From a virus, in the IMG/VR virus record IMGVR_UViG_3300045988_122072, positions 96,001 to 160,000 of that record: a stretch of 64,000 nucleotides of DNA. One strand, written 5' to 3'. The position numbers and the translations under genes are program-made. The notes under the pieces are model-generated. The model searched no databases. It had not been told where the DNA came from and saw only the letters and a list, made by a program, of their open reading frames with translations. Shown piece after piece: positions 1 through 29,005 of this stretch. Each line of letters opens with the position of its first letter. Position 1 is the stretch's first letter.

Positions 1-386
1 CTACTGCGGTAAATGGTCATATGAAGCAAGAGGATATGCCTAAGAATGTACTGATTATTTCAGACATGGAGTTTGACTCCTGTGCAACTTGTGGTGGTAA
101 TGGGTATGGTCTTAATAGACCTAGTGCAAGACTTTTTGAGACAATTAAGAAGCGTTTTGAGGATGCTGGGTATCAAATGCCTAGATTAGTCTTCTGGAAT
201 GTAAATTCTCGCACTGGAACTATTCCTGTAAAGGAAAATGACCTTGGTGTTGCTCTTGTTAGTGGATTCTCCACTAATGTTTGCAAGATGGTCATGAGTG
301 GTAAGACCGATCCTTATGAGTGCCTTGTTGAGACGCTTATGAGTGAGAGATATGATGCGGTGGAAGCCGCATTGAAGAACTTTTAA
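1..386 (+). CDS. DUF2828 / vWA-like protein, C-terminal fragment (5' end lies left of the window)
   Basis: Frame is open from nt 3 to TAA 384-386. Motifs VLIISDMEFD and RLVFWNVNS...GVALVSGFS match my memory of the C-terminal vWA-like part of the DUF2828 family. Not searched. Confidence 0.5.
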   Translation, partial: TAVNGHMKQEDMPKNVLIISDMEFDSCATCGGNGYGLNRPSARLFETIKKRFEDAGYQMPRLVFWNVNSRTGTIPVKENDLGVALVSGFSTNVCKMVMSGKTDPYECLVETLMSERYDAVEAALKNF

Positions 387-434
387 GGAGTTAAGTATGG
401 TGCTGGGCATCACCTTAAAGCTGCCCTAAGATAT

Positions 435-762
435 GCAGGTGTGTCGGAATTGGTATACGAAACAGACTCCGCTCATAGGTAAAAGCTATGAAGGTTGGGT
501 CACTATTTTGGAAACGAAATAGTTAGTAAACTCCCTAATTCTTGGAACGCTAAGTCTTAATAAGATACGCCAATCAAGAGCTAAATGAACTAAGTTCTAA
601 ATGTGTAGAGACTATAGAGGAGTTACCTAAACTTACATAAGTAAGCATGGTTATAAGATAGTCCAGACCACAAACACCAAATGGTGGCCATGAAAATGGT
701 AGGGGTAAGTAAAATCTGTTGCCCGTAAGGGATTGAGGGATCGTGGCCCTTCACCTGCACCA
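435..762 (+). tRNA. trnL: tRNA-Leu(UAA) gene interrupted in the anticodon loop by a group I intron (exons 435-468 and 710-762)
   Basis: Acceptor GCAGGTG (435-441) / CACCTGC (752-758), then A and CCA. Leu-type D arm TCG-GAATTGGTATA-CGA. Anticodon stem ACAGA (462-466) / TCTGT (715-719). Joined loop CT|TAAAA gives anticodon TAA. Long variable arm GCCC-GTAA-GGG. T arm GAGGG-ATCGTGG-CCCTT. Confidence 0.75.
469..709 (+). ncRNA. Group I intron (tRNA-type, IC3-like), 241 nt, no ORF
   Basis: The 5' exon ends in U468 and the intron ends in G709. GTGTAGAGACTA (603-614) equals the J6/7-P7 segment of the Azoarcus tRNA-Ile intron as I remember it. P7 candidate is GACTAT (610-615) / ATAGTC (658-663). Element order resembles cyanobacterial tRNA-Leu introns. 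I could not find a convincing P1, so the splice site is +-1 nt. Confidence 0.65.
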
Positions 763-1044
763 TGACCTTGGCAAGTCATTAAACTACCACATCCGCCTGA
801 TGTGTGCCAGCGGTCTAAAAGTACGGTAAACATCCTTCAAGGGTAGGGGATAGGAAGACCTGAGTTTACAGGGGAGTTGAATCCAGCCACTTGGAGTGAG
901 TCCTATAGCCCATGGTACTAAGGGACTATGCGTGAATGGATAAGGGATTATATCCAAACTCCTAAAAAGTACCTGAAACGCTAGGCAATTGTGAAATTCA
1001 AGCGTGTCCACTTTACTGGGCGTACCGTAAAAGCCGGATTATAT

Positions 1045-1121
1045 GGCCCATTGGTGAAGAAGAGTATCACGCTTGCCTGTCACGCAAGAGGACACCAGTT
1101 CAAGTCTGGTATGGGTCGCCA
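1045..1121 (+). tRNA. tRNA-Asp(GUC)
   Basis: Acceptor GGCCCAT / ATGGGTC. Anticodon arm CTTGC-CTGTCAC-GCAAG. T arm ACCAG-TTCAAGT-CTGGT. G then CCA encoded. The D loop (AGAAGAGTA) lacks the usual GG. Confidence 0.7.
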
Positions 1122-1124
1122 TTT

Positions 1125-1200
1125 GGAAGTATAGCTCAGTGGTTAGAGCGCTTGCCTGTTAAGCAAGATGTCGTAGGTTCAAGTCCTTCTACTTCCGCCA
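1125..1200 (+). tRNA. tRNA-Asn(GUU)
   Basis: Acceptor GGAAGTA / TACTTCC. D arm GCTC-AGTGGTTA-GAGC. Anticodon arm CTTGC-CTGTTAA-GCAAG. T loop TTCAAGT. GCCA 3' end. One U:U mismatch in the T stem. Confidence 0.85.
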
Positions 1201-1284
1201 TATGATAGTAAGTTGCTTAAACCGTTCTAGCAAACCCTATAAAATGGCAGAAACGGTGACGGTTGGAGAGACAACAAAATATAT

Positions 1285-1377
1285 GCCCTCATAGTTTAAT
1301 GGTAAAACACCCGGCCTATACCCGGCATTAAGGCTCCAGATTAGAGCACGTTCTCCGTTCGAGTCGGAGTGGGGGTA
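1285..1377 (+). tRNA. Atypical 93-nt tRNA-like gene, identity unresolved
   Basis: Acceptor GCCCTCA / TGGGGGT (G1.U72 and one more G.U). D arm GTTT-AATGGTA-AAAC. Canonical T arm CTCCG-TTCGAGT-CGGAG. Between them lie two hairpins, CCGG-CCTATAC-CCGG and GCTC-CAGATTA-GAGC, and neither has U33. No CCA is encoded. Confidence 0.4.
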
Positions 1378-1774
1378 GCTACTCAAGTCTTACAACCTCC
1401 ATGTGGTGAGTAGTGGGTAATGCTAATAGTAAGATATATTTATCATTCCCAATAATGACTTAGATATCATGATATCAACATATCAAATTGGGTGTCAGCC
1501 GTCAGGCACTTTAACGGCGTCATATCCTCTTTTAGTGTAAAGGTTGCACACCTCCAGTCAAGGAGCAGGAACGGTTCGATTCCGTACAGAGGACGGTTTG
1601 ACACAGCCGGAGTGTTATCTCTGGCATACGGATTAGCGTATGCAAAGCATTTGTCTTCGGATGGTAAAAATGCGAGAGAAGTCATCCCCTTGAACTTCTC
1701 ACTACATACATCCCTAGTGGTTGTTATGCTGAGGCCGATGATGGGGCGGTCGTTTATAATACCCCATTCAATAT

Positions 1775-1858
1775 GCCGCTGTGATGGAATGTATACATCT
1801 TGGTCTCAAAAACCAAGGCTCGAAAGAGATTGCGTGGTCGAACACGTCAGCGGTACCA
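1775..1858 (+). tRNA. tRNA-Leu(CAA), type II
   Basis: Acceptor GCCGCTG / CAGCGGT (G1.U72). 3-bp D stem ATG/CAT. Anticodon arm TTGGT-CTCAAAA-ACCAA. Variable arm CTC-GAAA-GAG. T stem GCGTG/CACGT with only a 6-nt loop GTCGAA. ACCA 3' end. Confidence 0.65.
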
Positions 1859-1885
1859 TTTGCGGTTATCCTAAACCGCATATAT

Positions 1886-1959
1886 GGCGGATTCGTTCAT
1901 TGGAAGGACACTCGGCTTTGACCCGAGAAAGGTTGGATCGTTACCAACATCCGCTGCCA
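1886..1959 (+). tRNA. tRNA-Gln(UUG)
   Basis: Acceptor GGCGGAT / ATCCGCT (G1.U72). D loop contains GG. Anticodon arm CTCGG-CTTTGAC-CCGAG. T arm GTTGG-ATCGTTA-CCAAC (A54/U58). GCCA 3' end. Confidence 0.7.
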
Positions 1960-2280
1960 GCCGATGAAACAAAGGCTTTGTTAGGTGGTGTTTGTGGAGG
2001 CTCTACCCGTAGGTTTGATGTTATCTTGTAAAGAGATGGTTCCTACGTCCTAACTTAGATCTTTCACAAAAACATCAACACATAATTGTCTTATCGCACC
2101 TCTGTTTAGCATTGCAAGTGCCCCAGATAAGCCTTTTGGAGAAAAATAAAATCCTATTTTTTCATAAGGGCGGACTGAATAAGTTGGTCATATTGAGTCC
2201 GTTCTAACTTTTGGTTGTAATGTAGTTGCTGAGTGGCTGATTGCTGACCACATGAAGCCATTCGGTAACGGCCAAAATAT

Positions 2281-2355
2281 GCGGGTGTAGTATAATGGTT
2301 ATTATGTCTGCCTTCCAAGCAGAAGATGGGGCTTCGATTGCCCTCACTCGCTCCA
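2281..2355 (+). tRNA. tRNA-Gly(UCC)
   Basis: Acceptor GCGGGTG / CACTCGC. Anticodon arm TCTGC-CTTCCAA-GCAGA. T arm GGGGC-TTCGATT-GCCCT. TCCA 3' end. Confidence 0.8.
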
Positions 2356-2487
2356 CCGCTCTCGCGGATTCTCGGCGATACTTCCAACAAGTATGCGAAG
2401 GAGAAAAATGGTATAAGTCTCACAATTACTACCTGCTGCTACAGGTTGACTGAATAAAGGTAATTCTTATTAGAAAGGAGTAGGCTT

Positions 2488-2760
2488 ATGTATCAAAACG
2501 TAATTGTTGGCGTTCCTTTGGTTGGAACTCCTGCGGAACTTTTTGGTTCTAGTCTGGAAGATTGGGCTCTGAACGAATCTGAAGTTACTCTTTTGACAGA
2601 AGAAAGATTTCTTCCTCGGATTTTAGTTGAAGCGGGGATTGTGAAAAGTACTAGCGAAGTTCGCAGAAATAGACCTGACCTTTGGAGAGAACTTAATGAG
2701 TTGGATTTCTTTCAAGTAAAATGGGGAAAGAAGTTTTTGTGGATTCTCGTTGGTGAATAA
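2488..2760 (+). CDS. Small S4-like RNA-binding protein resembling the C-terminal domain of tyrosyl-tRNA synthetase
   Basis: 90-aa ORF with SD AAAGGAG upstream, lying between tRNA-Gly and tRNA-Lys. ILVEAGIVKSTSEVRR and KWGKKFLWILVG resemble the TyrRS C-terminal LvxaGLxxSxSEARR ... RRGKKNYxLixW pattern (from memory). Confidence 0.45.
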   Translation: MYQNVIVGVPLVGTPAELFGSSLEDWALNESEVTLLTEERFLPRILVEAGIVKSTSEVRRNRPDLWRELNELDFFQVKWGKKFLWILVGE

Positions 2761-2766
2761 AAATAT

Positions 2767-2842
2767 CAGGATGTAGCTCAGTAGGTAGAGCAATTGCCTT
2801 TTAAGCAATGGGTCGGGAGTTCGAGACTCCCCATCCTGACCA
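2767..2842 (+). tRNA. tRNA-Lys(UUU)
   Basis: Acceptor CAGGATG / CATCCTG. D arm GCTC-AGTAGGTA-GAGC. Anticodon arm ATTGC-CTTTTAA-GCAAT. T arm GGGAG-TTCGAGA-CTCCC. ACCA 3' end. Confidence 0.9.
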
Positions 2843-2978
2843 GTAAGCCCTATTAGTTATGTTTACGTTTGTATGGTTTAGTTCATGACTGTACTGTTAT
2901 CTCTGTAAAAAACTAGCGATAGCGCTGTCGTGTTCTGCGGACGTAGGGCTAAAAATATTAAGAAGGGGATAAGATTAT

Positions 2979-3221
2979 ATGAGAATTAAAAACATTAATG
3001 AAATCAATGATTTTCTTTGTGCTGTAAAGCAATGTTCTGGAAATGTATATTTGACTTCTCCAGAAGGTGATAAATTTAACCTTAAATCTGAGTTTTCTCA
3101 ATATATTGCGCTAGGGGCTTTGCTTGGAGATAAGGGTGATTATCTCGAACTATTTTGTGATAATAAAGCAGACGAAACTTATTTCTTTAATTTTTTCAAC
3201 AATCATCCAGATATTAATTAA
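2979..3221 (+). CDS. hypothetical protein (80 aa)
   Basis: ORF preceded by AAGGGGA. No motif I can assign. Confidence 0.6.
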   Translation: MRIKNINEINDFLCAVKQCSGNVYLTSPEGDKFNLKSEFSQYIALGALLGDKGDYLELFCDNKADETYFFNFFNNHPDIN

Positions 3222-3231
3222 GGAGGTAAAT

Positions 3232-3393
3232 ATGGATACTAAAACGTTGAAAGACATTATTGCCACAAGAATTCAGGCCGAAAATGGTAATCCAACGGGG
3301 ATATCATTCTTGTATTCGATTGTGCAAATGGTTAATGAACTAGAGGAATTAAAATTAGAAAATGAACGTCTTAAGCAAGAACTATGTAAGTAA
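3232..3393 (+). CDS. hypothetical protein (53 aa, coiled-coil C-terminus)
   Basis: ATG 3232 lies 7 nt after AGGAGG. The ORF-track start at 3124 overlaps the previous gene and is less likely. Confidence 0.55.
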   Translation: MDTKTLKDIIATRIQAENGNPTGISFLYSIVQMVNELEELKLENERLKQELCK

Positions 3394-3459
3394 ATTATAA
3401 CCCGTGCTATCAATGGATCGGGTAGCATGGGTTATTATTTTTTTGTTATTAGGAGAGAT

Positions 3460-4104
3460 ATGATGAGTAAGTGGAAGCAAGTAACTATAATTTTTGGACT
3501 TTTATTATTTGTAATTATTATTAACATATTGAATAAAAAAGATTATGTAGCATCAGAAAATGCTAGTTTATATAAAGAACCTTTATTCATAGAATATGAA
3601 TCAGAAACAAACCCGCCAATTAACAAGCTTAATATTTATGAACAGGCAGTACTATATCAGGAAGAAATTTTCGAACAGCAACAAGAAACATTAAAGCAAG
3701 AAGAATTAGATGATATTTTATCAAAGTGTAGTATATATTGTGACGTGTCTGAAATCAAATTTGTAGATACAGATACACAATATACAGATTATGAGAAACA
3801 ACTATTAGCCCAATGTCTATATTGTGAAGCCGGAAGCACATCATGGGAGTGTCAAGTAATTACATTGTCTGCCATTCTTAATCATTGTGACGAATACGGT
3901 GGATTATGGGTATTAAATTCTGAAAATCATTTTGCAGTTGCTCCATATTATCAATATGTTATGCCACAAGAAGAACAATATAAAGTTGTTGATTATGTAT
4001 TATCTGGACATAGAATTACAGACGTTGTATATTTTAGAATACATACATTCCATAGTTTTGGTACGCCAATGTTATATGTAGATGGAGTATATTTCTCAAA
4101 ATAA
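3460..4104 (+). CDS. Membrane-anchored cell-wall hydrolase (SleB / Hydrolase_2-like)
   Basis: Start MMSKWK follows AGGAGAG. N-terminal TM helix. The C-terminal LLAQCLYCEAGSTSWECQVITLSAILNH...VVYF resembles the SleB-type hydrolase core. Confidence 0.55.
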   Translation: MMSKWKQVTIIFGLLLFVIIINILNKKDYVASENASLYKEPLFIEYESETNPPINKLNIYEQAVLYQEEIFEQQQETLKQEELDDILSKCSIYCDVSEIKFVDTDTQYTDYEKQLLAQCLYCEAGSTSWECQVITLSAILNHCDEYGGLWVLNSENHFAVAPYYQYVMPQEEQYKVVDYVLSGHRITDVVYFRIHTFHSFGTPMLYVDGVYFSK

Positions 4105-4105
4105 A

Positions 4106-4133
4106 ATAGTGGGCAATAACCCACTATTTTTTT
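4106..4133 (+). terminator. Rho-independent terminator
   Basis: Stem ATAGTGGG / CCCACTAT, loop CAATAA, followed by a T7 run. Confidence 0.8.
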
Positions 4134-4143
4134 ATGCAATGGG

Positions 4144-4198
4144 TTGACAAATTGTAAATACATGATATACTAATACAGGGTAAACAATACAAAATTAA
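4144..4198 (+). promoter_or_regulatory. Sigma-A type promoter plus conserved 15-nt leader box
   Basis: TTGACAAAT (4144-), 16-nt spacer, TGaTATACT (4163-4171), then ACAATACAAAATTAA (4184-4198) just upstream of an SD. Confidence 0.7.
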
Positions 4199-4215
4199 TA
4201 GAGGATGGTGTATAT

Positions 4216-4371
4216 ATGAAAACAGATAAGTATATTTTATTTTTCAAACACAATGGAGTTAATAAATGGATTGACGCAAATAATCTATCACTGCTTAAAA
4301 CAGTGCCGAATATTTGCGGGTGGATGACAGAATACAAAATTATTGACAGTATAACTGGAGAGGAGGTATAA
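4216..4371 (+). CDS. hypothetical small protein (51 aa)
   Basis: ATG 4216 follows GAGGATGG. The ORF ends one nt before the next start. It is below the ORF-track cutoff. It contains a 13/15 copy of the leader box at 4329-4343. Confidence 0.45.
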   Translation: MKTDKYILFFKHNGVNKWIDANNLSLLKTVPNICGWMTEYKIIDSITGEEV

Positions 4372-4372
4372 A

Positions 4373-5473
4373 ATGAGGGTGTATATGGACAATGCTGCTA
4401 CAACTCCCATTTGTGAAGCAGCAAAGAAAGCTATTCTAGAAAATTTGGATGAGTTCTATAATCCCAACAGTTCTTATGAGACGGCTCGTACTGTCAAAGT
4501 AAAGGTAGAAGAAGCACGTGAAAAGATTGCGGAATTGATTGGGGCAGAATCCAACGAAATCTATTTCACGTCTGGTGGATCAGAAGCAAATTCATGGGTG
4601 ATGTGTAATGGATTTTCTGTTGCTTCTAATATTGAACATCATTCTATTAAATCAGATTTTAAAATTAATGTAAATTCAAATGGATTGATTGATTGTACAA
4701 AGTTTAAAACAAAGATACATGAAATGAAAGACAATGATTTTTGTATTTCACCAAGCATTGCGTCATGTATGTTTGTAAATAACGAAATAGGGGTAATTGA
4801 ACCAATTAAATACTTGGCAAAGATTGCACATGACAATAATATGTTGTTTCATTCAGACGCAGTACAGGCCTTCCCTCATATGAAGATTGATGTAAAAAAT
4901 CTTGGCGTAGATATGATGTCGTGTTCGGGGCACAAGTTTGGCTCTCCTAAGGGGATCGGCTTCCTGTATATTAAAAATGGAATTAGTGTTAATCCATTAA
5001 TTAATGGTGGCGGACAAGAAAGAGGGATCCGAGGCGGCACGACCAATGTACTGGGCATCCTTGCAATGGCAGCAGCTTTAGAATATACAATCACGCATAT
5101 GGATGAAAATAATGCTAAACTCTCTTGCTTATCAAAGAAATTAAAGGATAACTTACTTGGGGTAAAAGGAGTCACACTTAATGCAATTGATGCAAAAACT
5201 CCATGTATAGAAAGTATTTTAAACCTCAGGATTGACGATGTGAAGAGTTCTGACCTAGTCACAATGTGTGATCTATATGGCATTGAGATTAGCTCTGGGT
5301 CGGCATGTAACGAAGGAACAGCAGAACCTTCTCATGTGCTCAAAGCTATTAGGCTCACAACCGAACAGGCATTAAGCAGCATTAGAATCTCACTATCTCA
5401 TCTAAACACTGAAGAAGAAATCGACTATGTTTCTAAAATGTTACCAAAAATTATTTCCAGATTACGCCAGTAA
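4373..5473 (+). CDS. Cysteine desulfurase (NifS/IscS-like class V aminotransferase)
   Basis: SGHKFGSPKGIGFLY (PLP lysine motif), SSGSACNEG (catalytic Cys loop), N-terminal YMDNAATTP. Confidence 0.85.
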   Translation: MRVYMDNAATTPICEAAKKAILENLDEFYNPNSSYETARTVKVKVEEAREKIAELIGAESNEIYFTSGGSEANSWVMCNGFSVASNIEHHSIKSDFKINVNSNGLIDCTKFKTKIHEMKDNDFCISPSIASCMFVNNEIGVIEPIKYLAKIAHDNNMLFHSDAVQAFPHMKIDVKNLGVDMMSCSGHKFGSPKGIGFLYIKNGISVNPLINGGGQERGIRGGTTNVLGILAMAAALEYTITHMDENNAKLSCLSKKLKDNLLGVKGVTLNAIDAKTPCIESILNLRIDDVKSSDLVTMCDLYGIEISSGSACNEGTAEPSHVLKAIRLTTEQALSSIRISLSHLNTEEEIDYVSKMLPKIISRLRQ

Positions 5474-5541: not shown

Positions 5542-5712
5542 ATGACAGAGGACAATCGTATTAAGGAAGAAGCCAAGAAGCAGAGAAATTTTTGGACATG
5601 TCCACGACCAGTGACTAAGGTTCTGCGCAACGCTAAGGCATACAACAGAGCCAAGGATCGTAAGGATAAACGATTGTATGAGGAAGATGAGGGTGTTGTC
5701 GAAGAAAGATAA
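5542..5712 (+). CDS. hypothetical small basic protein (56 aa)
   Basis: ATG 5542 lies 9 nt after AAAGGAG. It overlaps the 5' end of the next ORF and is below the ORF-track cutoff. Confidence 0.4.
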   Translation: MTEDNRIKEEAKKQRNFWTCPRPVTKVLRNAKAYNRAKDRKDKRLYEEDEGVVEER

Positions 5713-6106
5713 AAGTTATTTTAGAGCAGCTCAGGCAGTTAGTACACTATCGGATTTTAAAAGAGTAAATGTAGGAGCAGTATTGGTTTATAAACACAGA
5801 ATTATTTCTAGCTCTTGCAATTCTCAGCGGACGCATCCTTTGCAGCAAAAACTTAATAAAGAGCGTTTTGAAGAGGAAACTCCTGCAAAGCTACATGCTG
5901 AAGTTAGTTGTCTTATTCCGCTGCTTGGAAATAAAGATATTAAGTGGAGAGATTGCGAACTCTACGTATACAGAGAATATAAGCGTGGTGGGCTGGCGAT
6001 GAGTCGCCCTTGCCCCTCCTGCCAAAAATTAATTAAAGAACTTGGCATTAAGACTGTCCATTACACGACTAACGGGGGATATGCCACAGAAGAATTTGAA
6101 ATTTAA
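5678..6106 (+). CDS. dCMP / cytidine deaminase family protein
   Basis: Zinc motifs LHAEVSCL and PCPSCQKLIKELGIKTVHYT. The exact start is uncertain (5678 or 5687). Confidence 0.75.
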   Translation: MRKMRVLSKKDKSYFRAAQAVSTLSDFKRVNVGAVLVYKHRIISSSCNSQRTHPLQQKLNKERFEEETPAKLHAEVSCLIPLLGNKDIKWRDCELYVYREYKRGGLAMSRPCPSCQKLIKELGIKTVHYTTNGGYATEEFEI

Positions 6107-19057: not shown

Positions 19058-19126
19058 AGAATAAAATATCATACGAATCATACGAAACGGTAAGAAGCAA
19101 AATTTTCAGAAAGGAGGTAATAGTTG

Positions 19127-20236
19127 ATGAAAATTTTAAGAGCATATAAATACCGGATATATCCAAATCAAGAGCAAGAAATTTTAATTCAAAAAACATT
19201 TGGATGTGTAAGGTTTGTATATAATCAGGCACTTTCATATCGTCAAGAATTATATAAAACCAAAAGAAAAAATATCAGTAAATTTGCTTGTGAACAGTAT
19301 ATGATTCAAGTTCTAAAACAACAATATGAATGGTTGAGAGAAGTTGATAAATTTGCATTATCAAGTGCAATTTGGAATATGGATTATGCATATCAAAAAT
19401 TTTTCAAAGAACATGCAGGCTTCCCGAAGTTTAAAAGCAAACATAATCACAGAAAATCATATACAACAAAAATAACAAATAACAATATTGCAGTTTCTTT
19501 TGAGAACAATAAAATTAAGCTTCCAAAGTTAAGTTGGGTTAAAGCAAGGATTCATCGTAAATTTGTTGGCAAAATTAAACAAGCAACAGTTTCACAAAAT
19601 CCATCAGGAAAATATTTTGTTTCTGTGTTAGTAGAAGAAGAACATCGTCCATTATTAACAACCGGTTCTACTATTGGACTTGATCTTGGAATTAAAGATT
19701 TGGTTATTACCTCCAATGGTAAAAAATATGCAAATCCAAAAATCTTAGAGAAGTATAAAAAGAAACTTTCTAAAGAACAACGAAGAATGACTCATAAACA
19801 AAAAAGTTCAAGTAATTATAACAAACAACGCATTAAAGTTGCTCGTATTTACGAAAAAATCCATAATATCAGATTAGATTATCTACACAAAATATCTAAT
19901 GAAATTATTAGCGAAAACCAAGTAATAATTTCTGAAGATTTATCCATATCTAATATGATGAAGAACCATAAACTAGCAAAATCAATTAGTGATTGTGGCT
20001 GGTACGAGCTAACGAGGCAATTAGAATATAAGGCAAAATGGAATGAAAGACAATATATCAAGATTGGAAGATTCATTCCATCGAGTCAAATTTGCAATTG
20101 TTGTGGATACAGGTATCCAGAAACAAAAGATTTATCGGTTAGAGCATGGACATGTCCTAGTTGTGGAACAAAACACGACCGAGATATTAATGCGGCTAAA
20201 AATATTTTAGACGAAGGATTAAAATTTGTGGTGTGA
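19127..20236 (+). CDS. tnpB: TnpB (IS605 OrfB family RNA-guided endonuclease)
   Basis: N-terminal [17 protein letters not shown]. RuvC-like GLDLGIKD. Zinc finger CNCCG...CPSCG. C-terminal [10 protein letters not shown]. Confidence 0.9.
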
Positions 20237-22203: not shown

Positions 22204-22805
22204 ATACAAGAATTAATTATATTTCAGATTCTTGGACAAGAATAAAAAATCATTGTAGAACAACTGTCAATAAGAAATTCACAGAAAAAGAGCCAACTGA
22301 TAAGTTTAAGGAAGAACTTTTAATTAGCGAACATTCTCCTATTAGATGTCTTGAGGTTGATTGGACATGGGAGAATATTCCTTATTGGGTAAGTACGGAA
22401 CTAAGCCGCCATAAGCATGAAAAGTTTATTAGTTCACAGCGTGATGACAGAAATAATAATGAAATTCCTCGCGGAAAGAAACCACAAGATTCTCCCGTCA
22501 CTCATGACGCATATGCAAATGCCCAGAATCTAATTGACATGATGCGTAAAAGACTTTGTTTTATGGCAACCAAAGAAGCTAGAGAAGCGGCAGAAAATTT
22601 GAAATATGAACTACATAATTACGAACCACAACTAGCAAATGTGCTTATGCCGAATTGCTTATATAGAGCAGGATGTCCAGAGTTTGAAACTTGCGGATTT
22701 TGGAAGAAGTTCAAGGAAAAACATCCAGATGTAGATATGACCGATATTAAAGAAAGATATCGAGCATATAATGAAGATTTTTATAAGAAATTTAATGAGG
22801 AGTGA
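22200..22805 (+). CDS. thyX: ThyX-like flavin-dependent thymidylate synthase
   Basis: EHSPIRCLEVDW...ELSRHKHEKFISSQRDDR resembles the ThyX HxSxxEH ... RHRxxSxxxxSxR signature. TTG start overlaps the upstream stop. Confidence 0.55.
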   Translation: MNTRINYISDSWTRIKNHCRTTVNKKFTEKEPTDKFKEELLISEHSPIRCLEVDWTWENIPYWVSTELSRHKHEKFISSQRDDRNNNEIPRGKKPQDSPVTHDAYANAQNLIDMMRKRLCFMATKEAREAAENLKYELHNYEPQLANVLMPNCLYRAGCPEFETCGFWKKFKEKHPDVDMTDIKERYRAYNEDFYKKFNEE

Positions 22806-23608
22806 TGTCTGTGACTGTAGAACAATGGCTTGGTAAAGATAATAAAATTGGTATTGATATTTGGCACAAGAAATATCAGTACAACAATGAAAATTTTGAC
22901 GAATGGTTAGATAGAGTAAGCGCTGGAGATAAAGAGCTAAAACAACTTATCATTGAAAAGAAATTTTTAATGGGTGGTAGAACACTTGCTAATCGTGGTA
23001 CAAATAGTACTGGTAGCCTGTTTAATTGTTACTCCAGAGGCTATGTTGAAGATGACTATTCTGATATTATGGATGCTGCAAAAGACATTGGCGTAACATT
23101 TAAGGCTCAGGGAGGACAGGGCATTTCTCTTACTAAGCTTCGTCCAAAGGGCACACCAATCAAGAAAGAATATTTTTCTGATGGTATTGTACCATTTATG
23201 AAGATTTTTAATGAAGTTACCGCAGGGACTTCTCAGGGTGGGGCTCGAAAGGGAGCGCTTATGCTTTCTGTCGATGCTAGGCACAAGGAAGCAGAAACAT
23301 TCATTAAGATTAAGTCAAAGGACGGAGAGATTGAAAAGGCGAATCTATCTCTTGAAATCGATGATGAATTTATGAGAGCCATTGAGAAGTATTATGATAC
23401 TGGAGAAGTTGTCGTGCTGCATGAAAAGCGTAATTATGCTGGTCATGAAGTAGAATATGATGTAACGCCAATTAACATTTTCAATATGCTTGTAGATAAT
23501 TGTTATGATTGGGCAGATCCTGCATGTTTGTTTGTTAATAGGTTTAGAAATTATAATCTAATGCAGTATGATGATGAATATGAAATTGAAACTTGCAATC
23601 CTTGTGGT
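22805..23608 (+). CDS. nrdJ: Class II (B12-dependent) ribonucleotide reductase, exon 1
   Basis: ATG 22805 follows GAGGAG. Exon 1 ends ...EIETCNPCG. The ORF-track tail WLTCRK* is intron read-through. Confidence 0.8.
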
Positions 23609-24053
23609 TGGTTAACTTGCCGCAAGTAAAACATCCCGTAAAATCGGTGAAGCCTACACCGAAAGGCATGGTAATACCGAGTTCCCACTGCATCACAGGG
23701 GAATGTAACGCATAGGCGATGAGCGGATATGAGAGCAATAATTCGCCCACGAGTACGGGACATTGGCACATAACGGAGTGATAATATTGATTATATATAA
23801 AGTAATAAACATTATTAATGGCAAGGTGTACAAATGAATATTATCAATGAAAAATATGATCTTAAAGACATTAGAAGCCTATATCCTTGCTTTAATGTTA
23901 AAAATTCAAAAGATCTTGCAAACTGTTTAAAAGATTATGTGCTAAATGAAAATATATGCTGAACTGGTCTGAACTGACAGACGTATCGGGTTATACCCGT
24001 ATGAGAGAAATCTCCAGAAGCTATGGATAAAAAGCCATAGCGATAACACACAG
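23609..24053 (+). ncRNA. Group I intron in nrdJ (445 nt, no intact endonuclease ORF)
   Basis: Exon ends in U23608 and the intron ends in G24053. P1 pairs exon CUUGUGGU (23601-23608) with intron GCCGCAAG (23619-23626), with a U.G wobble at the splice site. 3' hairpin GCTATGG-ATAAAAAG-CCATAGC. Splicing restores NPCG|EQPL in frame. Confidence 0.75.
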
Positions 24054-25526
24054 GAGCAACCACTTCCAAAGCATGGAGCATGTTGCTTGTCATCCCTTAA
24101 CCTATCTGAGTTTGTTGTAAACCCATATACTCCAACTGCGCATTTGAACACAGAAGATTTCCTTCATGCTATTGATGTTGGAATTAGAACTCTTGATAAG
24201 CTAATTGACGAAAACTACAATAGGCACCCGCTACAGCAGCAAAGAGATATGTCATATAATTATAGAAACATTGGTCTCGGCATTTTTGGATATGCAACTG
24301 CTCTAATGAAGCTTGGACTTAAGTATGGTTCAAATGAAGCAATCGAATTTACTGATGATGTATTTTCACTTTTATTCAAACGAGCAGTATTCGCAAGCAA
24401 TAATCTTGCAAAAGAATTAGGTACATATCCGAAGTATAAGGAGTGCGTATTTGATAGCGACATTATTAAGAATCATTTTACACCAGATGAAATTGATGGT
24501 CTAAAAGAACACGGTCTTAGAAACTGCTCTTTAATTTCAATTGCTCCGAATGGGTCTCTTGCTACTTTACTTGGAGAATCTGGTGGATGTGAGCCTGAGT
24601 TTGCACTTAAGTATACACGTAGAACTGTCGGTATGACAGACGGCGAAGATACTTATTATGATGTTTACTGTAAAGCAGCAAAAGAATATATGGATGCAAA
24701 CCATACAGATATCCTTCCAGACTATTTTGTTGGCTCTGCAGATATTCCTTGGCAAAATAGAGTGCTAACACAGGCGGCTATGCAAAACCATGTAGATACT
24801 GCAATTAGTTCTACAGTAAATATGCCTAATTCTGCTACAAAAGAAGATGTAGCTCATATGTATTTACTTGCGTGGTCAACTGGCTGTAAGGGCATTACGA
24901 TGTTTAGAGATGGATGTAAACGCCTTGGCATTCTGACAACAGACAAATCTGAAAGTGGCACAGACGAAAATGGAATTAAGCCTTATGAACTTCCACGTGG
25001 CGCTATTATTGAATGTTCTAGTGACCTAGTTGGTAAAAAGCGCAAGCTTACTACGGGGTGTGGTAGTTTACATGTTCTTGCATTTTTTGACCCATATGAT
25101 GGCTCACTACAAGAAGCATATTTCAATAAGGGGTCAACTGGAGGATGCGCCAACTTTATGACTGGTCTTAGCAGAACAGTTTCACTATTGTGCAGAGCAG
25201 GTGTTGATATTATGACCATTAAAGATCAACTAGATTCTACTGGCGCTTGTCCGAGCTATGCCGCAAGAACTGCAACTAGACATGATACATCTAAGGGGTC
25301 ATGTTGTCCAATGGCAATTGGTAATGCATTAGTTGAAATGTATAATGAGATGCAACAAGATATTGGTGATAATGAAGAGGAAATTAATACTGATACAGTT
25401 GTTCATCAGATAACGAAGCCTGAACAAATTAATTCAAACGATAGATGCCCAGAATGTGGGTCTATTCTTGAACACGTTGGCGGCTGTGATTTGTGTAAAA
25501 ATTGTGGATTTACTCACTGTGGGTAA
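24054..25526 (+). CDS. nrdJ: Class II ribonucleotide reductase, exon 2
   Basis: Frame is open from 24054 and reads EQPLPKHGACCLSSLNLSEF, completing the NPCGEQPL...C.L.S.NL active-site block. C-terminal CPECG...CDLCKNCG zinc ribbon. Confidence 0.8.
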   Translation, partial: EQPLPKHGACCLSSLNLSEFVVNPYTPTAHLNTEDFLHAIDVGIRTLDKLIDENYNRHPLQQQRDMSYNYRNIGLGIFGYATALMKLGLKYGSNEAIEFTDDVFSLLFKRAVFASNNLAKELGTYPKYKECVFDSDIIKNHFTPDEIDGLKEHGLRNCSLISIAPNGSLATLLGESGGCEPEFALKYTRRTVGMTDGEDTYYDVYCKAAKEYMDANHTDILPDYFVGSADIPWQNRVLTQAAMQNHVDTAISSTVNMPNSATKEDVAHMYLLAWSTGCKGITMFRDGCKRLGILTTDKSESGTDENGIKPYELPRGAIIECSSDLVGKKRKLTTGCGSLHVLAFFDPYDGSLQEAYFNKGSTGGCANFMTGLSRTVSLLCRAGVDIMTIKDQLDSTGACPSYAARTATRHDTSKGSCCPMAIGNALVEMYNEMQQDIGDNEEEINTDTVVHQITKPEQINSNDRCPECGSILEHVGGCDLCKNCGFTHCG

Positions 25527-27846: not shown

Positions 27847-27862
27847 TAAAGGAGTGGTTATT

Positions 27863-29005
27863 GTGGCAAAGAAGAGAATGAACGGAGAAGGATCTTGGAC
27901 ACAGCGCGATAATGGTAAATGGAAGTTATCTGTATCATACAAGGGGTTTGGCAGGAAATATTTCTATGGCACCAAGCAAGAGTGCTTAAACAAAAAGCAA
28001 GAATTTGAAGCGTTATTGTCAACAGGTATTGTTGGAGAGAAAGACGTTTTATTTAAGGATTTTGCTCATTCATGGCTTAAAAATATTAAACAGCCATCGA
28101 TTAAACCAGCCTCATATGATAGACTTGCAGACATAACAGAAAATTTTTTAATTAAACAGTTAGGGGATTTGGCGTTGCAACAAATAGATGATAGTTTAAT
28201 TCAAACCATGATAATAAATAAGTTTAAAACAGACGGGTATTCACGTTCAACAATTCGCAAAGCTTATGGAACATTGGGGCAAATTTTTGATTATGCTATA
28301 GCCAGAGGGAAAGTAAACAAAAACCCAATAGACAATGTGGTGATGCCAAAACGAGAACTATTTGAAGAAAAAGAGCAAAGATTCTTTTCAGAAGAGGAAA
28401 GAGCTAGGTTGGTAAACGCCTGCTATATGAAATATAGTAACGGGGAAAGAAGATTTAAATATGGTGCATTTTATGTTTTCTTAATGTATACTGGGCTTAG
28501 ACTTGGCGAAGGACTCGCACTTAAGTGGAAATATATTGACTTTGAAAAAAGGACAGTCTATGTATCAAGAACCATAGTATATGTAAAAGACCGAACAAAA
28601 AATGATGGAAGCAAAATTCTTATTGATCAATCAACTACAAAGGGAGGAAGAGGGAGAACCGTATTTTTATCAGACATGGCAATAGAGGCTCTTAACGATC
28701 TGAAAGAAGAAAAAGGATATGATCCAGAACAGTACATTATACGCTCAAGATATAATACAATGGTTCGCCCTGCTGATGCGTATAAGGTATTCCAGCGTAT
28801 ATTAAAACAAGCAGACATAGAACAGTGTGGGCCACACTCATTGAGACACACGTTCGTAAGTGCGCTTATTGACCAAGGTGTTCCAATAACAATGATTTCG
28901 AAAATAGTTGGGCACGCAAAAATTGATGTTACAATGACAGTATATTCTCATTTGTTGCAAGAAACACAAAATGCATCTATGTCTGTTATAAAAAATCTTA
29001 AGTAA
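27863..29005 (+). CDS. int: Tyrosine recombinase (phage integrase)
   Basis: N-terminal NGEGSW. C-terminal catalytic pattern GLRLGE...HSLRHTF...GH...Y (R..HxxR..H..Y). The start (GTG 27863, GTG 27854 or ATG 27878) is uncertain. Confidence 0.9.
   Translation: MAKKRMNGEGSWTQRDNGKWKLSVSYKGFGRKYFYGTKQECLNKKQEFEALLSTGIVGEKDVLFKDFAHSWLKNIKQPSIKPASYDRLADITENFLIKQLGDLALQQIDDSLIQTMIINKFKTDGYSRSTIRKAYGTLGQIFDYAIARGKVNKNPIDNVVMPKRELFEEKEQRFFSEEERARLVNACYMKYSNGERRFKYGAFYVFLMYTGLRLGEGLALKWKYIDFEKRTVYVSRTIVYVKDRTKNDGSKILIDQSTTKGGRGRTVFLSDMAIEALNDLKEEKGYDPEQYIIRSRYNTMVRPADAYKVFQRILKQADIEQCGPHSLRHTFVSALIDQGVPITMISKIVGHAKIDVTMTVYSHLLQETQNASMSVIKNLK

Follow-up and report, generated by a model that had tools for sequence, protein, structure and literature searches.

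Phage T4 counters the anticodon nuclease PrrC with an RNA ligase and a kinase, and the tRNAs of phage T5 evade PARIS and retron effectors; the known evasion acts through the anticodon loop. Clusters of tRNA genes are carried by T4 and T5 and by the Beta and Zeta groups of crAss-like phages (PMC7886860), and tRNAs, introns, and inteins are described as abundant in the Zeta group (Yutin et al., 2021, PMC7886860). Here we analyze a tRNA array at positions 435-2842 of a viral DNA stretch of 64,000 nt (IMG/VR record IMGVR_UViG_3300045988_122072, positions 96,001 to 160,000), which is called the window below and to which all coordinates without a locus label refer. Like the known clusters, the array is a dense, same-strand series whose tRNAs match preferred codons, and the genome around it shows signs of many intervening sequences. 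It differs from them in the large share of tRNAs with odd elbows, in tRNA bodies that are swapped within their flanks, and in long conserved non-coding spacers. We consider it likely that this is a functional tRNA array, in which the elbow features and a G1.U72 pair are maintained alternatives within the normal tRNA fold that spread by cassette exchange.

A compact array of eight tRNA genes

The array holds eight tRNA genes and one tRNA-like element, all on the plus strand, where a first-pass annotation of the window had counted at least seven tRNAs in 2.4 kb. The genes and elements are as follows.

435..468, plus strand: 5' exon of tRNA-Leu(UAA) (acceptor, D arm, 5' anticodon stem, C32 U33), read directly
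469..709, plus strand: predicted group I intron of 241 nt between U33 and U34 (RF00028 and inspection)
710..762, plus strand: 3' exon of tRNA-Leu(UAA), T loop AUCGUGG at 740-746, encoded CCA, read directly
1045..1121, plus strand: tRNA-Asp(GUC), D loop AGAAGAGUA without G18 (ARAGORN; Rfam 58.4 bits)
1125..1200, plus strand: tRNA-Asn(GUU), canonical (ARAGORN; Rfam 74.6 bits)
1285..1377, plus strand: 93-nt tRNA-Ile(UAU)-like gene with an extra (variable) arm, C32 C33, G1.U72, no CCA (Rfam 46.4 bits)
1378..1434, plus strand: predicted theta (minimal HDV-like) ribozyme, catalytic C at 1423 (RF02682 and published motif)
1525..1593, plus strand: tRNA-like element with four arms, canonical T loop UUCGAUU, a 6-nt "anticodon" loop, no CCA (cloverleaf-like minimum-free-energy fold)
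1775..1858, plus strand: tRNA-Leu(CAA), 6-nt T loop GUCGAA at 1837-1842, D loop without GG, G1.U72, CCA (own structural scan)
1886..1959, plus strand: tRNA-Gln(UUG), T loop AUCGUUA, G1.U72, encoded CCA (ARAGORN; Rfam 44.7 bits)
2281..2355, plus strand: tRNA-Gly(UCC), canonical T loop (ARAGORN; Rfam 62.5 bits)
2488..2760, plus strand: 90-aa open reading frame (ORF) within the array, homologues in 8 loci
2767..2842, plus strand: tRNA-Lys(UUU), canonical, "empty-site" allele (ARAGORN; Rfam 71.5 bits)

ARAGORN calls six of these genes, namely Asp, Asn, Gln, Gly, and Lys with the ends listed above and the Ile-like gene as a 96-nt "Ile-tat" at 1284-1379. The same six score 44.7-74.6 bits with the Rfam tRNA model RF00005, against a gathering score of 29. 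Covariance-model scoring had been proposed in the first-pass annotation as a check that might expose pseudogenes; these six genes pass it, and tRNA-Leu(CAA) is unmatched even at E<=10. Both ARAGORN and Rfam thus miss tRNA-Leu(CAA), and neither finds the intron-split tRNA-Leu(UAA) in place, a point of interest for tRNA gene finders in general. The tRNA genes show the 7-bp acceptor stem, the D, anticodon, and T arms, and the 7-nt anticodon loop of a cloverleaf, and seven of the eight encode CCA, the Ile-like gene being the exception. The motif ATAT lies directly (4 nt) upstream of seven of the eight genes (those starting at 435, 1045, 1285, 1775, 1886, 2281, and 2767). The canonical elbow (U54-A58, G18-U55, G19-C56, and a 7-nt T loop) is present in Asn, Gly, Lys, and the Ile-like gene. 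It is altered in tRNA-Leu(UAA) and tRNA-Gln (A54/U58), in tRNA-Leu(CAA) (6-nt loop and a single G in the D loop), and in tRNA-Asp (A18).

The codons that the array would serve are well used, with TTA accounting for 34% of Leu codons, CAA for 71% of Gln, GGA for 35% of Gly, AAA for 65% of Lys, and ATA for 22% of Ile, at a GC content of 36%. The array sits just downstream of a DUF2828/DUF7788 gene, of which the window has only the C-terminal part. A Ro60/Y-RNA idea for this upstream gene was dropped, as it has no solved relative by sequence and the homologues returned are fragments. The 90-aa ORF matches no Pfam family and no PHROG family.

Elbow variants are coupled across related loci

Related loci, 85 in all, were collected by way of the upstream protein (77 loci) or the 90-aa ORF (8 loci) and are labelled L001 onward. 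A structural rule that ignores the loop sequence (acceptor stem 7/7, T stem 5/5, CCA, and D and anticodon arms) yields 181 distinct tRNAs of this clade, which fall into the following classes at positions 54 and 58.

U-A (7-nt loop): 155/181 distinct tRNAs, most isoacceptors
A-U: 11/181, Gln, Leu-CAA, Gly, Glu, Ala, Thr
A-A: 6/181, five tRNA-Tyr and one Leu-UAA (L008/L014)
G-G: 5/181, Met, Pro, Ser, Tyr
6-nt T loop: 2/181, Leu-CAA
8-nt T loop: 2/181, one with U54/A58

The T loops AUCGUGG (740-746) of tRNA-Leu(UAA) and AUCGUUA (1937-1943) of tRNA-Gln carry A54 with U58, as had been noticed from the sequence, and the suggestion made then that this reflects covariation rather than decay is borne out in the relatives. 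No U58 occurs without A54, and the combination is found in six isoacceptor families among the scanned tRNAs of the clade as well as in the split tRNA-Leu(UAA) of the window. Among 130 distinct T arms of the clade, the 54/58 combination is U-A in 112, A-U in 9, and A-A or G-G in 9, with no one-sided change, and a Fisher test of A54 against U58, which is uncorrected for phylogeny, gives p = 9e-11. The other two elbow pairs are coupled as well. When the T loop has U55 C56, the D loop has GG in 162/165 tRNAs; with G55 C56 it has GG in 0/4 and AG in 4/4 (18/55 covariation); and with U55 U56 it has GA in 4/5 (19/56 covariation). Examples of the last type are tRNA-Arg(UCU/ACG) genes of L003, L005, and L007 and a tRNA-Trp(CCA), in which the T loop UUUGAGU occurs with GA D loops and A19-U56 replaces G19-C56.

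The missing G18-G19 dinucleotide of tRNA-Asp is confirmed: GG is absent from its D loop AGAAGAGUA (1058-1066), where A stands at 18 in the Rfam alignment and G19 is retained. Among the loci listed, five others keep this loop, in two sequence variants. The G1.U72 pair is present in tRNA-Leu(CAA), tRNA-Gln, and the 93-nt gene, as first described, and it also occurs in 23/181 distinct tRNAs of the relatives; it is a habit of the clade.

The 6-nt T loop GUCGAA reported for tRNA-Leu(CAA) is real, and the D loop of this gene, GAAUGUAUA, is 2 nt shorter than those of its relatives. In the Leu family alignment the gap falls exactly at G18-G19, and the D-loop and T-loop deletions are coupled. The acceptor stem of the gene pairs at 7/7 positions and its T stem at 5/5, its anticodon loop is CUCAAAA, its minimum-free-energy fold is a cloverleaf, and it is retained in several genomes (L006, L014, L015, L084, and others). 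The L015 homologue shows a compensatory change from U6-A67 to C6-G67, and an alignment of 12 Leu tRNAs, including every odd one, gives a common cloverleaf with compensatory changes at 22/23 pairs. Even so, tRNA-Leu(CAA) remains the weakest gene of the array.

Uncompensated stem disruption and uncoupled loss, which would mark pseudogenes, are not what the comparison reveals: the stems are intact, and the elbow changes are coupled. Compensatory stem changes together with coupled elbow pairs point to maintained RNAs rather than pseudogenes, and we therefore read the elbow departures as probable maintained covariation and not decay. In this respect the array documents, in natural sequences, how all three elbow tertiary pairs (54-58, 18-55, and 19-56) covary, for which alternatives to the canonical pairs are little described in bacterial and phage tRNAs.

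A54/U58 is a recurrent variant of bacterial and viral tRNAs

According to a review of the T loop, U54 is universal apart from eukaryotic initiator tRNAs (Roovers et al., 2021, PMC7912444). The A54-A58 of these initiators is the closest described case, a natural replacement of U54-A58 in an otherwise normal T loop (PMC7912444), and the same A54/A58 is found in the tRNA-Tyr genes of the clade and in a tRNA-Leu of Pseudomonas phage 201phi2-1. The window differs from the eukaryotic case in having A54-U58 (with G54-G58 in relatives), in elongator tRNAs, and in bacteria and phages. A literature search on A54/U58, phage tRNA T loops, and nested tRNAs found no relevant paper in the collection searched.

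The pattern that we scanned for, in one-genome-per-species bacterial contigs and then in viral contigs, was a common D arm with G53-AUCGU-NN-C61 behind it at the proper distance. The scan returned at least 120 A54/U58 tRNA matches in bacterial genomes and at least 120 in unrelated viral contigs. Among the matches listed, 244/247 have a paired T stem and acceptor stem (cloverleaf), and 77/120 genome loci contain just one tRNA, the arrangement of chromosomal genes. The cellular matches listed group by lineage and isotype: they are tRNA-His in Kiritimatiellia, Lentisphaerae, and Verrucomicrobia, tRNA-Met including one of Segatella copri, tRNA-Lys in Patescibacteria, and solitary tRNA-Gly(CCC) genes in metagenome-assembled genomes of Bacteroidales/Bacteroidaceae, one of these genes (L128) lying on a 419-kb contig. 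Bacteroidales is presumed to be the host lineage. The L128 tRNA-Gly(CCC) agrees with the phage A54/U58 tRNA-Gly(UCC) allele of L001 at 61/73 positions, and at 48/51 positions outside the anticodon arm and variable loop. This likeness points to a host-like origin of the phage allele. The exact T arm of the window's tRNA-Gln is absent from 185,579 species genomes and gives no clue to the host.

These results show that the A54/U58 swap is a recurrent natural variant and not a phage-specific signature. The first-pass annotation had treated T54-A58 as a universal pair and had proposed the swap as a phage device for escape or modification avoidance. The scan contradicts the first idea and lends no support to the second: the at least 120 bacterial genome sites show that T54-A58 is not universal, and the same variant in bacterial tRNAs, Bacteroidales among them, means that the machinery of the host lineage already handles it. 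Recurrent A54-U58 exceptions in bacteria and phages bear on which tRNAs can receive m5U54, and they caution against reading every departure of a phage tRNA as anti-defence.

tRNA bodies exchanged between conserved flanks

At the Leu-UAA, Gln, Gly, and Ile sites, the flanks are 93-100% identical between loci while the tRNA between them differs, and the boundaries of the exchanged segment in relatives coincide with the ATAT motif and the CCA end. tRNA bodies thus appear to be swapped as cassettes within conserved flanks. A tRNA-Gly(UCC) allele with A54/U58, for example, is found in L001, and L058 and L084 have alleles with the same T arm; the flanks of this gene in L001 and L084 are those of the canonical gene in the window. 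The window's tRNA-Gln(UUG) has identical copies in L004, L006, and L014, and the arrays of relatives hold 8 to 21 tRNAs. Between the genes lie conserved segments.

785..1044, plus strand: conserved non-coding spacer, 76-95% identical in L001, L002, L009, L014, L034, L076, L078, and others
1594..1774, plus strand: structured conserved spacer after the tRNA-like element, about 82% identical to L001 and L082
1960..2280, plus strand: highly conserved non-coding spacer, 96-100% identical in 12 loci

The 260-nt block at 785-1044 adjoins different tRNAs at different positions of the arrays, as if it moved with or between cassettes. The spacers 1960-2280 and 2356-2465, which flank tRNA-Gly, are 96-97% identical to L001, where the tRNA-Gly between them is a different allele and where the ORF at 2488-2760 is only 66% identical (protein). 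Such conservation has two possible sources, a strong constraint on the RNA or DNA and a recent recombination event, and spacer 1960-2280 has too little variation to judge structure. A "drum" RNA candidate for 1959-2080 (E = 0.93, 20 bits) is not credible.

The tRNA-like element at 1525-1593 is called by ARAGORN only at a relaxed threshold. It is kept in L001 and L082, where its "anticodon" loop is a different 5 nt, and an exact-pattern search for homologues found 3 loci only. The spacer that follows it (1594-1774) forms hairpins, at least one of which shows a compensatory change (GAGAAG/CUUCUC versus GGCAGA/UCUGUC). No further Rfam family was found in the spacers of the array, 1594-1774 included.

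A predicted group I intron in tRNA-Leu(UAA)

A group I intron of tRNA-Leu(UAA) is known from cyanobacteria and plastids, where it sits between U34 and A35. The first-pass annotation correctly started the window's tRNA-Leu(UAA) at 435 and missed that the gene is split by 241 nt between U33 and U34. RF00028 matches 464-687 over the full length of the model (1-253) with 41.9 bits and E = 1e-8, below the gathering score of 50. By inspection, P1 forms between GACU|C (465-469) and GGGUC (497-501), which places U33.G at the 5' splice site, P3 is AACUCC/GGAGUU within 528-535/619-624, and P7 is GACUA/UAGUC within 609-617/657-664. The last base of the insert is G709, and joining the exons restores the anticodon loop CUUAAAA exactly; the spliced gene (435-468 joined to 710-762) is called as tRNA-Leu(taa) by ARAGORN at default settings and folds as a cloverleaf. 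The U.G pair of P1, the terminal G, and the intact gene restored on joining are all characteristic of group I introns, and we assign the insert to this class as a predicted member on the basis of the model match and inspected pairings.

The phage intron resembles that of cyanobacteria and plastids in its host gene, in the loop that it interrupts, in the U.G closing P1, in the terminal G, and in the CUUAAAA loop after rejoining. It differs in its position one nucleotide earlier, in lying in a phage tRNA, and in its score below the Rfam gathering threshold; the relative L010 has a 762-nt insert at 34/35, the cyanobacterial/plastid position. The same intron-bearing allele is present in L084 (97% identical), and relatives carry at this site a different, canonical tRNA-Leu(UAA) that is intron-less or has a 762-nt or a 47-nt insert. 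The 3' exon is 85% identical to the 3' half of the 201phi2-1 tRNA-Leu, whose T loop is AUCGAGG (A54/A58).

A predicted theta ribozyme behind the Ile-like gene

Theta ribozymes are characteristically found directly 3' of gut-phage tRNAs without an encoded CCA (Kienbeck et al., 2024, PMC10879173). The Ile-like gene ends in exactly this way: its discriminator A73 is at 1377, it has no CCA, and G1 of the candidate ribozyme is at 1378, so that the predicted cleavage site falls within +/-1 nt of the tRNA 3' end. The RF02682 match scores 33.5 bits (E = 8e-4), below the gathering score of 44. Region by region, the published motif fits as GCTACTC, AAG, TCTTACA, ACC, T, CC, ATGT, GGT, GAGTAGT, GG, GTAATG, CTAAT, AGTAAGA, and a nested double pseudoknot can be drawn with P1 of 7 bp, P3 of 3 bp, P1.1 CC/GG, P2 of 6 bp, and a short P4. 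Likeness to the described theta ribozymes extends to the ACC-U-CC-AYGU-GGU core, the GG, the 6-nt L4 GUAAUG, the CUAA, and the site 3' of a CCA-less tRNA (PMC10879173). In contrast to those, the present one follows a tRNA(UAU) and not a suppressor, and the window shows no sign of stop-codon recoding. No entry in the available part of the supplementary tables of PMC10879173 has exactly this ribozyme sequence. The ribozyme is kept in L004, L006, L014, and L084 with variants at pair 1-37, the first P1 pair at the cleavage site (1378/1414), which among these loci is G.U, A-U, A.C, and G-C. A scan with our own loose HDV-like descriptor gave mostly false positives, missed the true site, and was discarded.

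The gene in front of the ribozyme also varies between loci. Compared with L004, the Ile-like gene has two compensatory T-stem pairs; the L001 homologue is a long-arm version with U32 U33, an encoded CCA, and no ribozyme; and L084 has a canonical type-I tRNA(UAU) at this site, before the same ribozyme. The gene reads AUA and carries C4-G69, U12-A23, C29-G41, and A73, which are isoleucine identity elements of E. coli. A role in stop-codon recoding or suppression was considered for the 93-nt gene and rejected, since the giant minus-strand ORFs of the window (1638, 2816, and 3215 aa) are uninterrupted under the standard code and the anticodon is UAU in all homologues.

RNA repair genes and a model of tRNA maturation

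An RNA end-repair cluster lies about 5.5 kb downstream of the array.

8338..9444, plus strand: T4 Rnl1-like RNA ligase (phrog_562, E = 9e-48; TIGR02308, E = 4e-18, below cut-off; PDB 2C5U, T4 RNA ligase 1, E = 1e-16)
9710..10519, plus strand: nucleotidyltransferase, for which a CCA-adding role is only possible (phrog_388, E = 1e-17)
11107..12033, plus strand: polynucleotide kinase (AAA_33, E = 8e-25) fused to an HD phosphohydrolase domain (phrog_505; TIGR04075, Pnkp)
14061..14894, plus strand: Thg1-like 3'-5' nucleotidyltransferase (Pfam Thg1, E = 9e-26; phrog_4717, E = 4e-90)

The nucleotidyltransferase has no Pfam, NCBIfam, or PDB match, and the kinase/HD protein is also similar to the HD region of CCA-adding enzyme. 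The pairing of an Rnl1-like ligase with a polynucleotide kinase/HD protein is shared with the Rnl1/Pnkp tRNA repair of T4, and here it stands next to a Thg1-like enzyme, which suggests that the phage invests in tRNA end repair. A link between the Thg1-like enzyme and the unusual tRNAs, raised in the first-pass annotation, is speculative. The cluster (8338-14894) also includes a radical-SAM-like "Fe-S oxidoreductase" and is preceded by genes for a cysteine desulfurase (4373-5473) and a cytidine/dCMP-type deaminase (5678-6106).

A functional array would supply tRNAs for the favored A-ending codons UUA, CAA, GGA, AAA, and AUA, plus Asp, Asn, and UUG, and would thereby add to the tRNA pool of the host in the usual way. 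The stretch 300-3500 contains no terminator-like site, which makes it likely that the array is transcribed as one precursor. RNase P would then cut out each tRNA, and the CCA encoded on seven genes would serve maturation. tRNA-Leu(UAA) would first need self-splicing of its group I intron. HDV-like ribozymes leave a cyclic phosphate; the 3' end of the Ile-like gene would be cut by the theta ribozyme, then healed and given CCA, and the HD/kinase protein and the nucleotidyltransferase could heal and extend this end. The 2.4 kb thus combine three predicted routes of RNA maturation, namely RNase P with encoded CCA, a group I intron, and a theta ribozyme, and with the T4-like repair set nearby the locus is a compact test bed for phage tRNA maturation. 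The elbow variants may be inherited from, or tolerated like, cellular tRNA variants including those of Bacteroidales, and they would have spread because tRNA bodies are exchanged as cassettes between conserved flanks.

Alternative explanations for the unusual tRNAs

Several points weigh against a functional array with maintained elbow alternatives. The covariation statistics ignore phylogeny, and some T arms may share ancestry. tRNA-Leu(CAA) is undetected by ARAGORN at any threshold tried and by Rfam at E<=10, and the support for it consists of one compensatory pair with a near-identical homologue and one 72%-identical relative. The Ile-like gene has C33 in place of the near-universal U33, its minimum-free-energy fold is not a cloverleaf, and both ribozyme-class matches (RF00028 and RF02682) score below the Rfam gathering scores. 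If the odd genes, above all tRNA-Leu(CAA) and the C33 Ile-like gene, were pseudogenes in an array of fast turnover, these failures of detection would be expected, as would the C32 C33 of the Ile-like gene against U32 U33 in its L001 homologue and the loss of a normal anticodon loop from the element at 1525-1593. The range of 8 to 21 tRNAs in the arrays of relatives also implies that gene loss is common. Decay is nevertheless contradicted by compensatory changes, and we regard it as distinctly unlikely: tRNA-Leu(CAA) keeps its acceptor and T stems, anticodon loop, and CCA, is compensated against L015, occurs in several genomes, and has coupled D- and T-loop deletions, and the Ile-like gene has two compensatory T-stem pairs and keeps its ribozyme. 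A further account takes some elements as tRNA-shaped processing signals, decoys, or primers, for instance RNase P marks that release spacer RNAs or molecules that titrate tRNA-binding defense proteins. It would fit the element at 1525-1593, whose shape is conserved although its "anticodon" loop varies and which is followed by a conserved, structured RNA, as well as the spacers 1960-2280 and 2356-2465, conserved well above the neighboring ORF, and the tRNA-shaped inserts without a usable anticodon in relatives. We judge it very unlikely for the array as a whole, in which eight tRNA genes have intact anticodon loops matching preferred codons and 7/8 encode CCA, and in which no partner protein or function was identified for the spacers; only the tRNA-like element and the spacers are plausible candidates for such a role.

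The elbow changes (A54-U58, a T loop of 6 nt, and the loss of G18) could instead make the tRNAs resistant to a T-loop- or elbow-directed tRNase, either of a host defense or of the phage's own shut-off system, or could free them from m5U54 or Psi55. Elbow variants are frequent in the clade (non-U54/A58 T loops in 24/181 and G1.U72 in 23/181), the Gly and Leu-UAA sites hold a canonical T loop in some phages and a variant one in others, a pattern that fluctuating selection would produce, and the T4 precedent makes a tRNA-level conflict plausible for a phage with an Rnl1-like ligase, a kinase/HD protein, and a Thg1-like enzyme. A tRNase that cuts the T loop also exists, CdiA-CT E479 (PMC9086364). 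On the other side, A54/U58 occurs in chromosomal tRNAs of many bacterial lineages including Bacteroidales, so this feature does not set the phage apart from its host, and the phage Gly allele looks host-derived. The alternation of alleles is explained by cassette exchange, and none of the elbow features is tied to any nuclease. We know of no T-loop-directed defense, and none was found here; compared with the known evasion through the anticodon loop, neither a nuclease nor a cleavage site was identified in this locus. We hold this explanation to be unlikely: an anti-defense adaptation of the elbow features is unsupported by positive evidence and is possible for single isoacceptors. On the preferred reading of a functional array with maintained alternatives, the array is real, largely ordinary, and made of known kinds of element, with an elbow variation that is under-described elsewhere.

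Nested tRNA inserts in relatives

The most unusual sight of this analysis lies outside the window, where tRNA-shaped inserts occupy the anticodon loops of relatives. In L004, L082, and L083, a 75-nt inner tRNA sits in the anticodon loop of tRNA-Lys(UUU), for which the window (2767-2842) has the empty site. The 47-77-nt "introns" that ARAGORN reports in anticodon loops of relatives are tRNAs or tRNA-like minihelices (for example L004 8795-8945, L005 6960-7113, L002 7357-7509, L008 8123-8272, L001 6491-6622, and others). They include a complete CCA-ended tRNA inside Lys-UUU and an amber-suppressor tRNA (CUA) inside Ile-UAU, and units of 47-66 nt inside Leu-UAA, Thr, Glu, Ser, and Pro, which have an acceptor-like stem, a T arm with loop GGCAGNA or GUCAUCA, and a 3' NCCA. 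Inner tRNAs score 43.5 and 47.5 bits with Rfam, and the closing stem of the 47-nt insert covaries. The T loop GGCAGNA, which is non-canonical, recurs in many of the inserts, and an NCCA end is likewise frequent among them. In most of L001-L077, at about 3600-4700 and upstream of the DUF2828 gene, there are also 2-4 tRNA-like genes per locus with a 31-55-nt insert in the anticodon region, made up of a hairpin and, after it, the conserved motif ACAGCAA; these genes occur across distant crAss-like lineages.

The island could accordingly be seen as one allele of a lineage-wide mobile system of tRNA cassettes, in which the nested inserts are a new kind of tRNA intron, cut by the cell's tRNA end-processing enzymes (RNase P at the 5' side and another activity at the 3' side) and sealed by the phage Rnl1-like ligase with the kinase/phosphatase. 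The window would contribute the empty-site Lys allele together with the ligase and kinase/HD genes. We offer this reading tentatively, as one that is unlikely to be right; if true, it would be a bacterial-virus analogue of protein-catalyzed tRNA splicing. A weaker addition to it is that the unusual elbows mark how tRNA-shaped units are handled.

Genome context

Related phage contigs are 150-170 kb, and a search of deposited phage genomes found no close relative, only tRNA-level matches. The large subunit of ribonucleotide reductase is encoded in two pieces 457 nt apart (22802-23629 and 24087-25526, Pfam positions 8-213 and 230-522), which suggests an intervening sequence; the gap has no Rfam intron match. 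A large crAss-like gut phage would account for these features, and its relatives and the split reductase gene fit the Zeta group. The window also contains a TnpB (IS605 OrfB-type) gene at 19124-20236 and a tyrosine integrase gene at 27854-29005.

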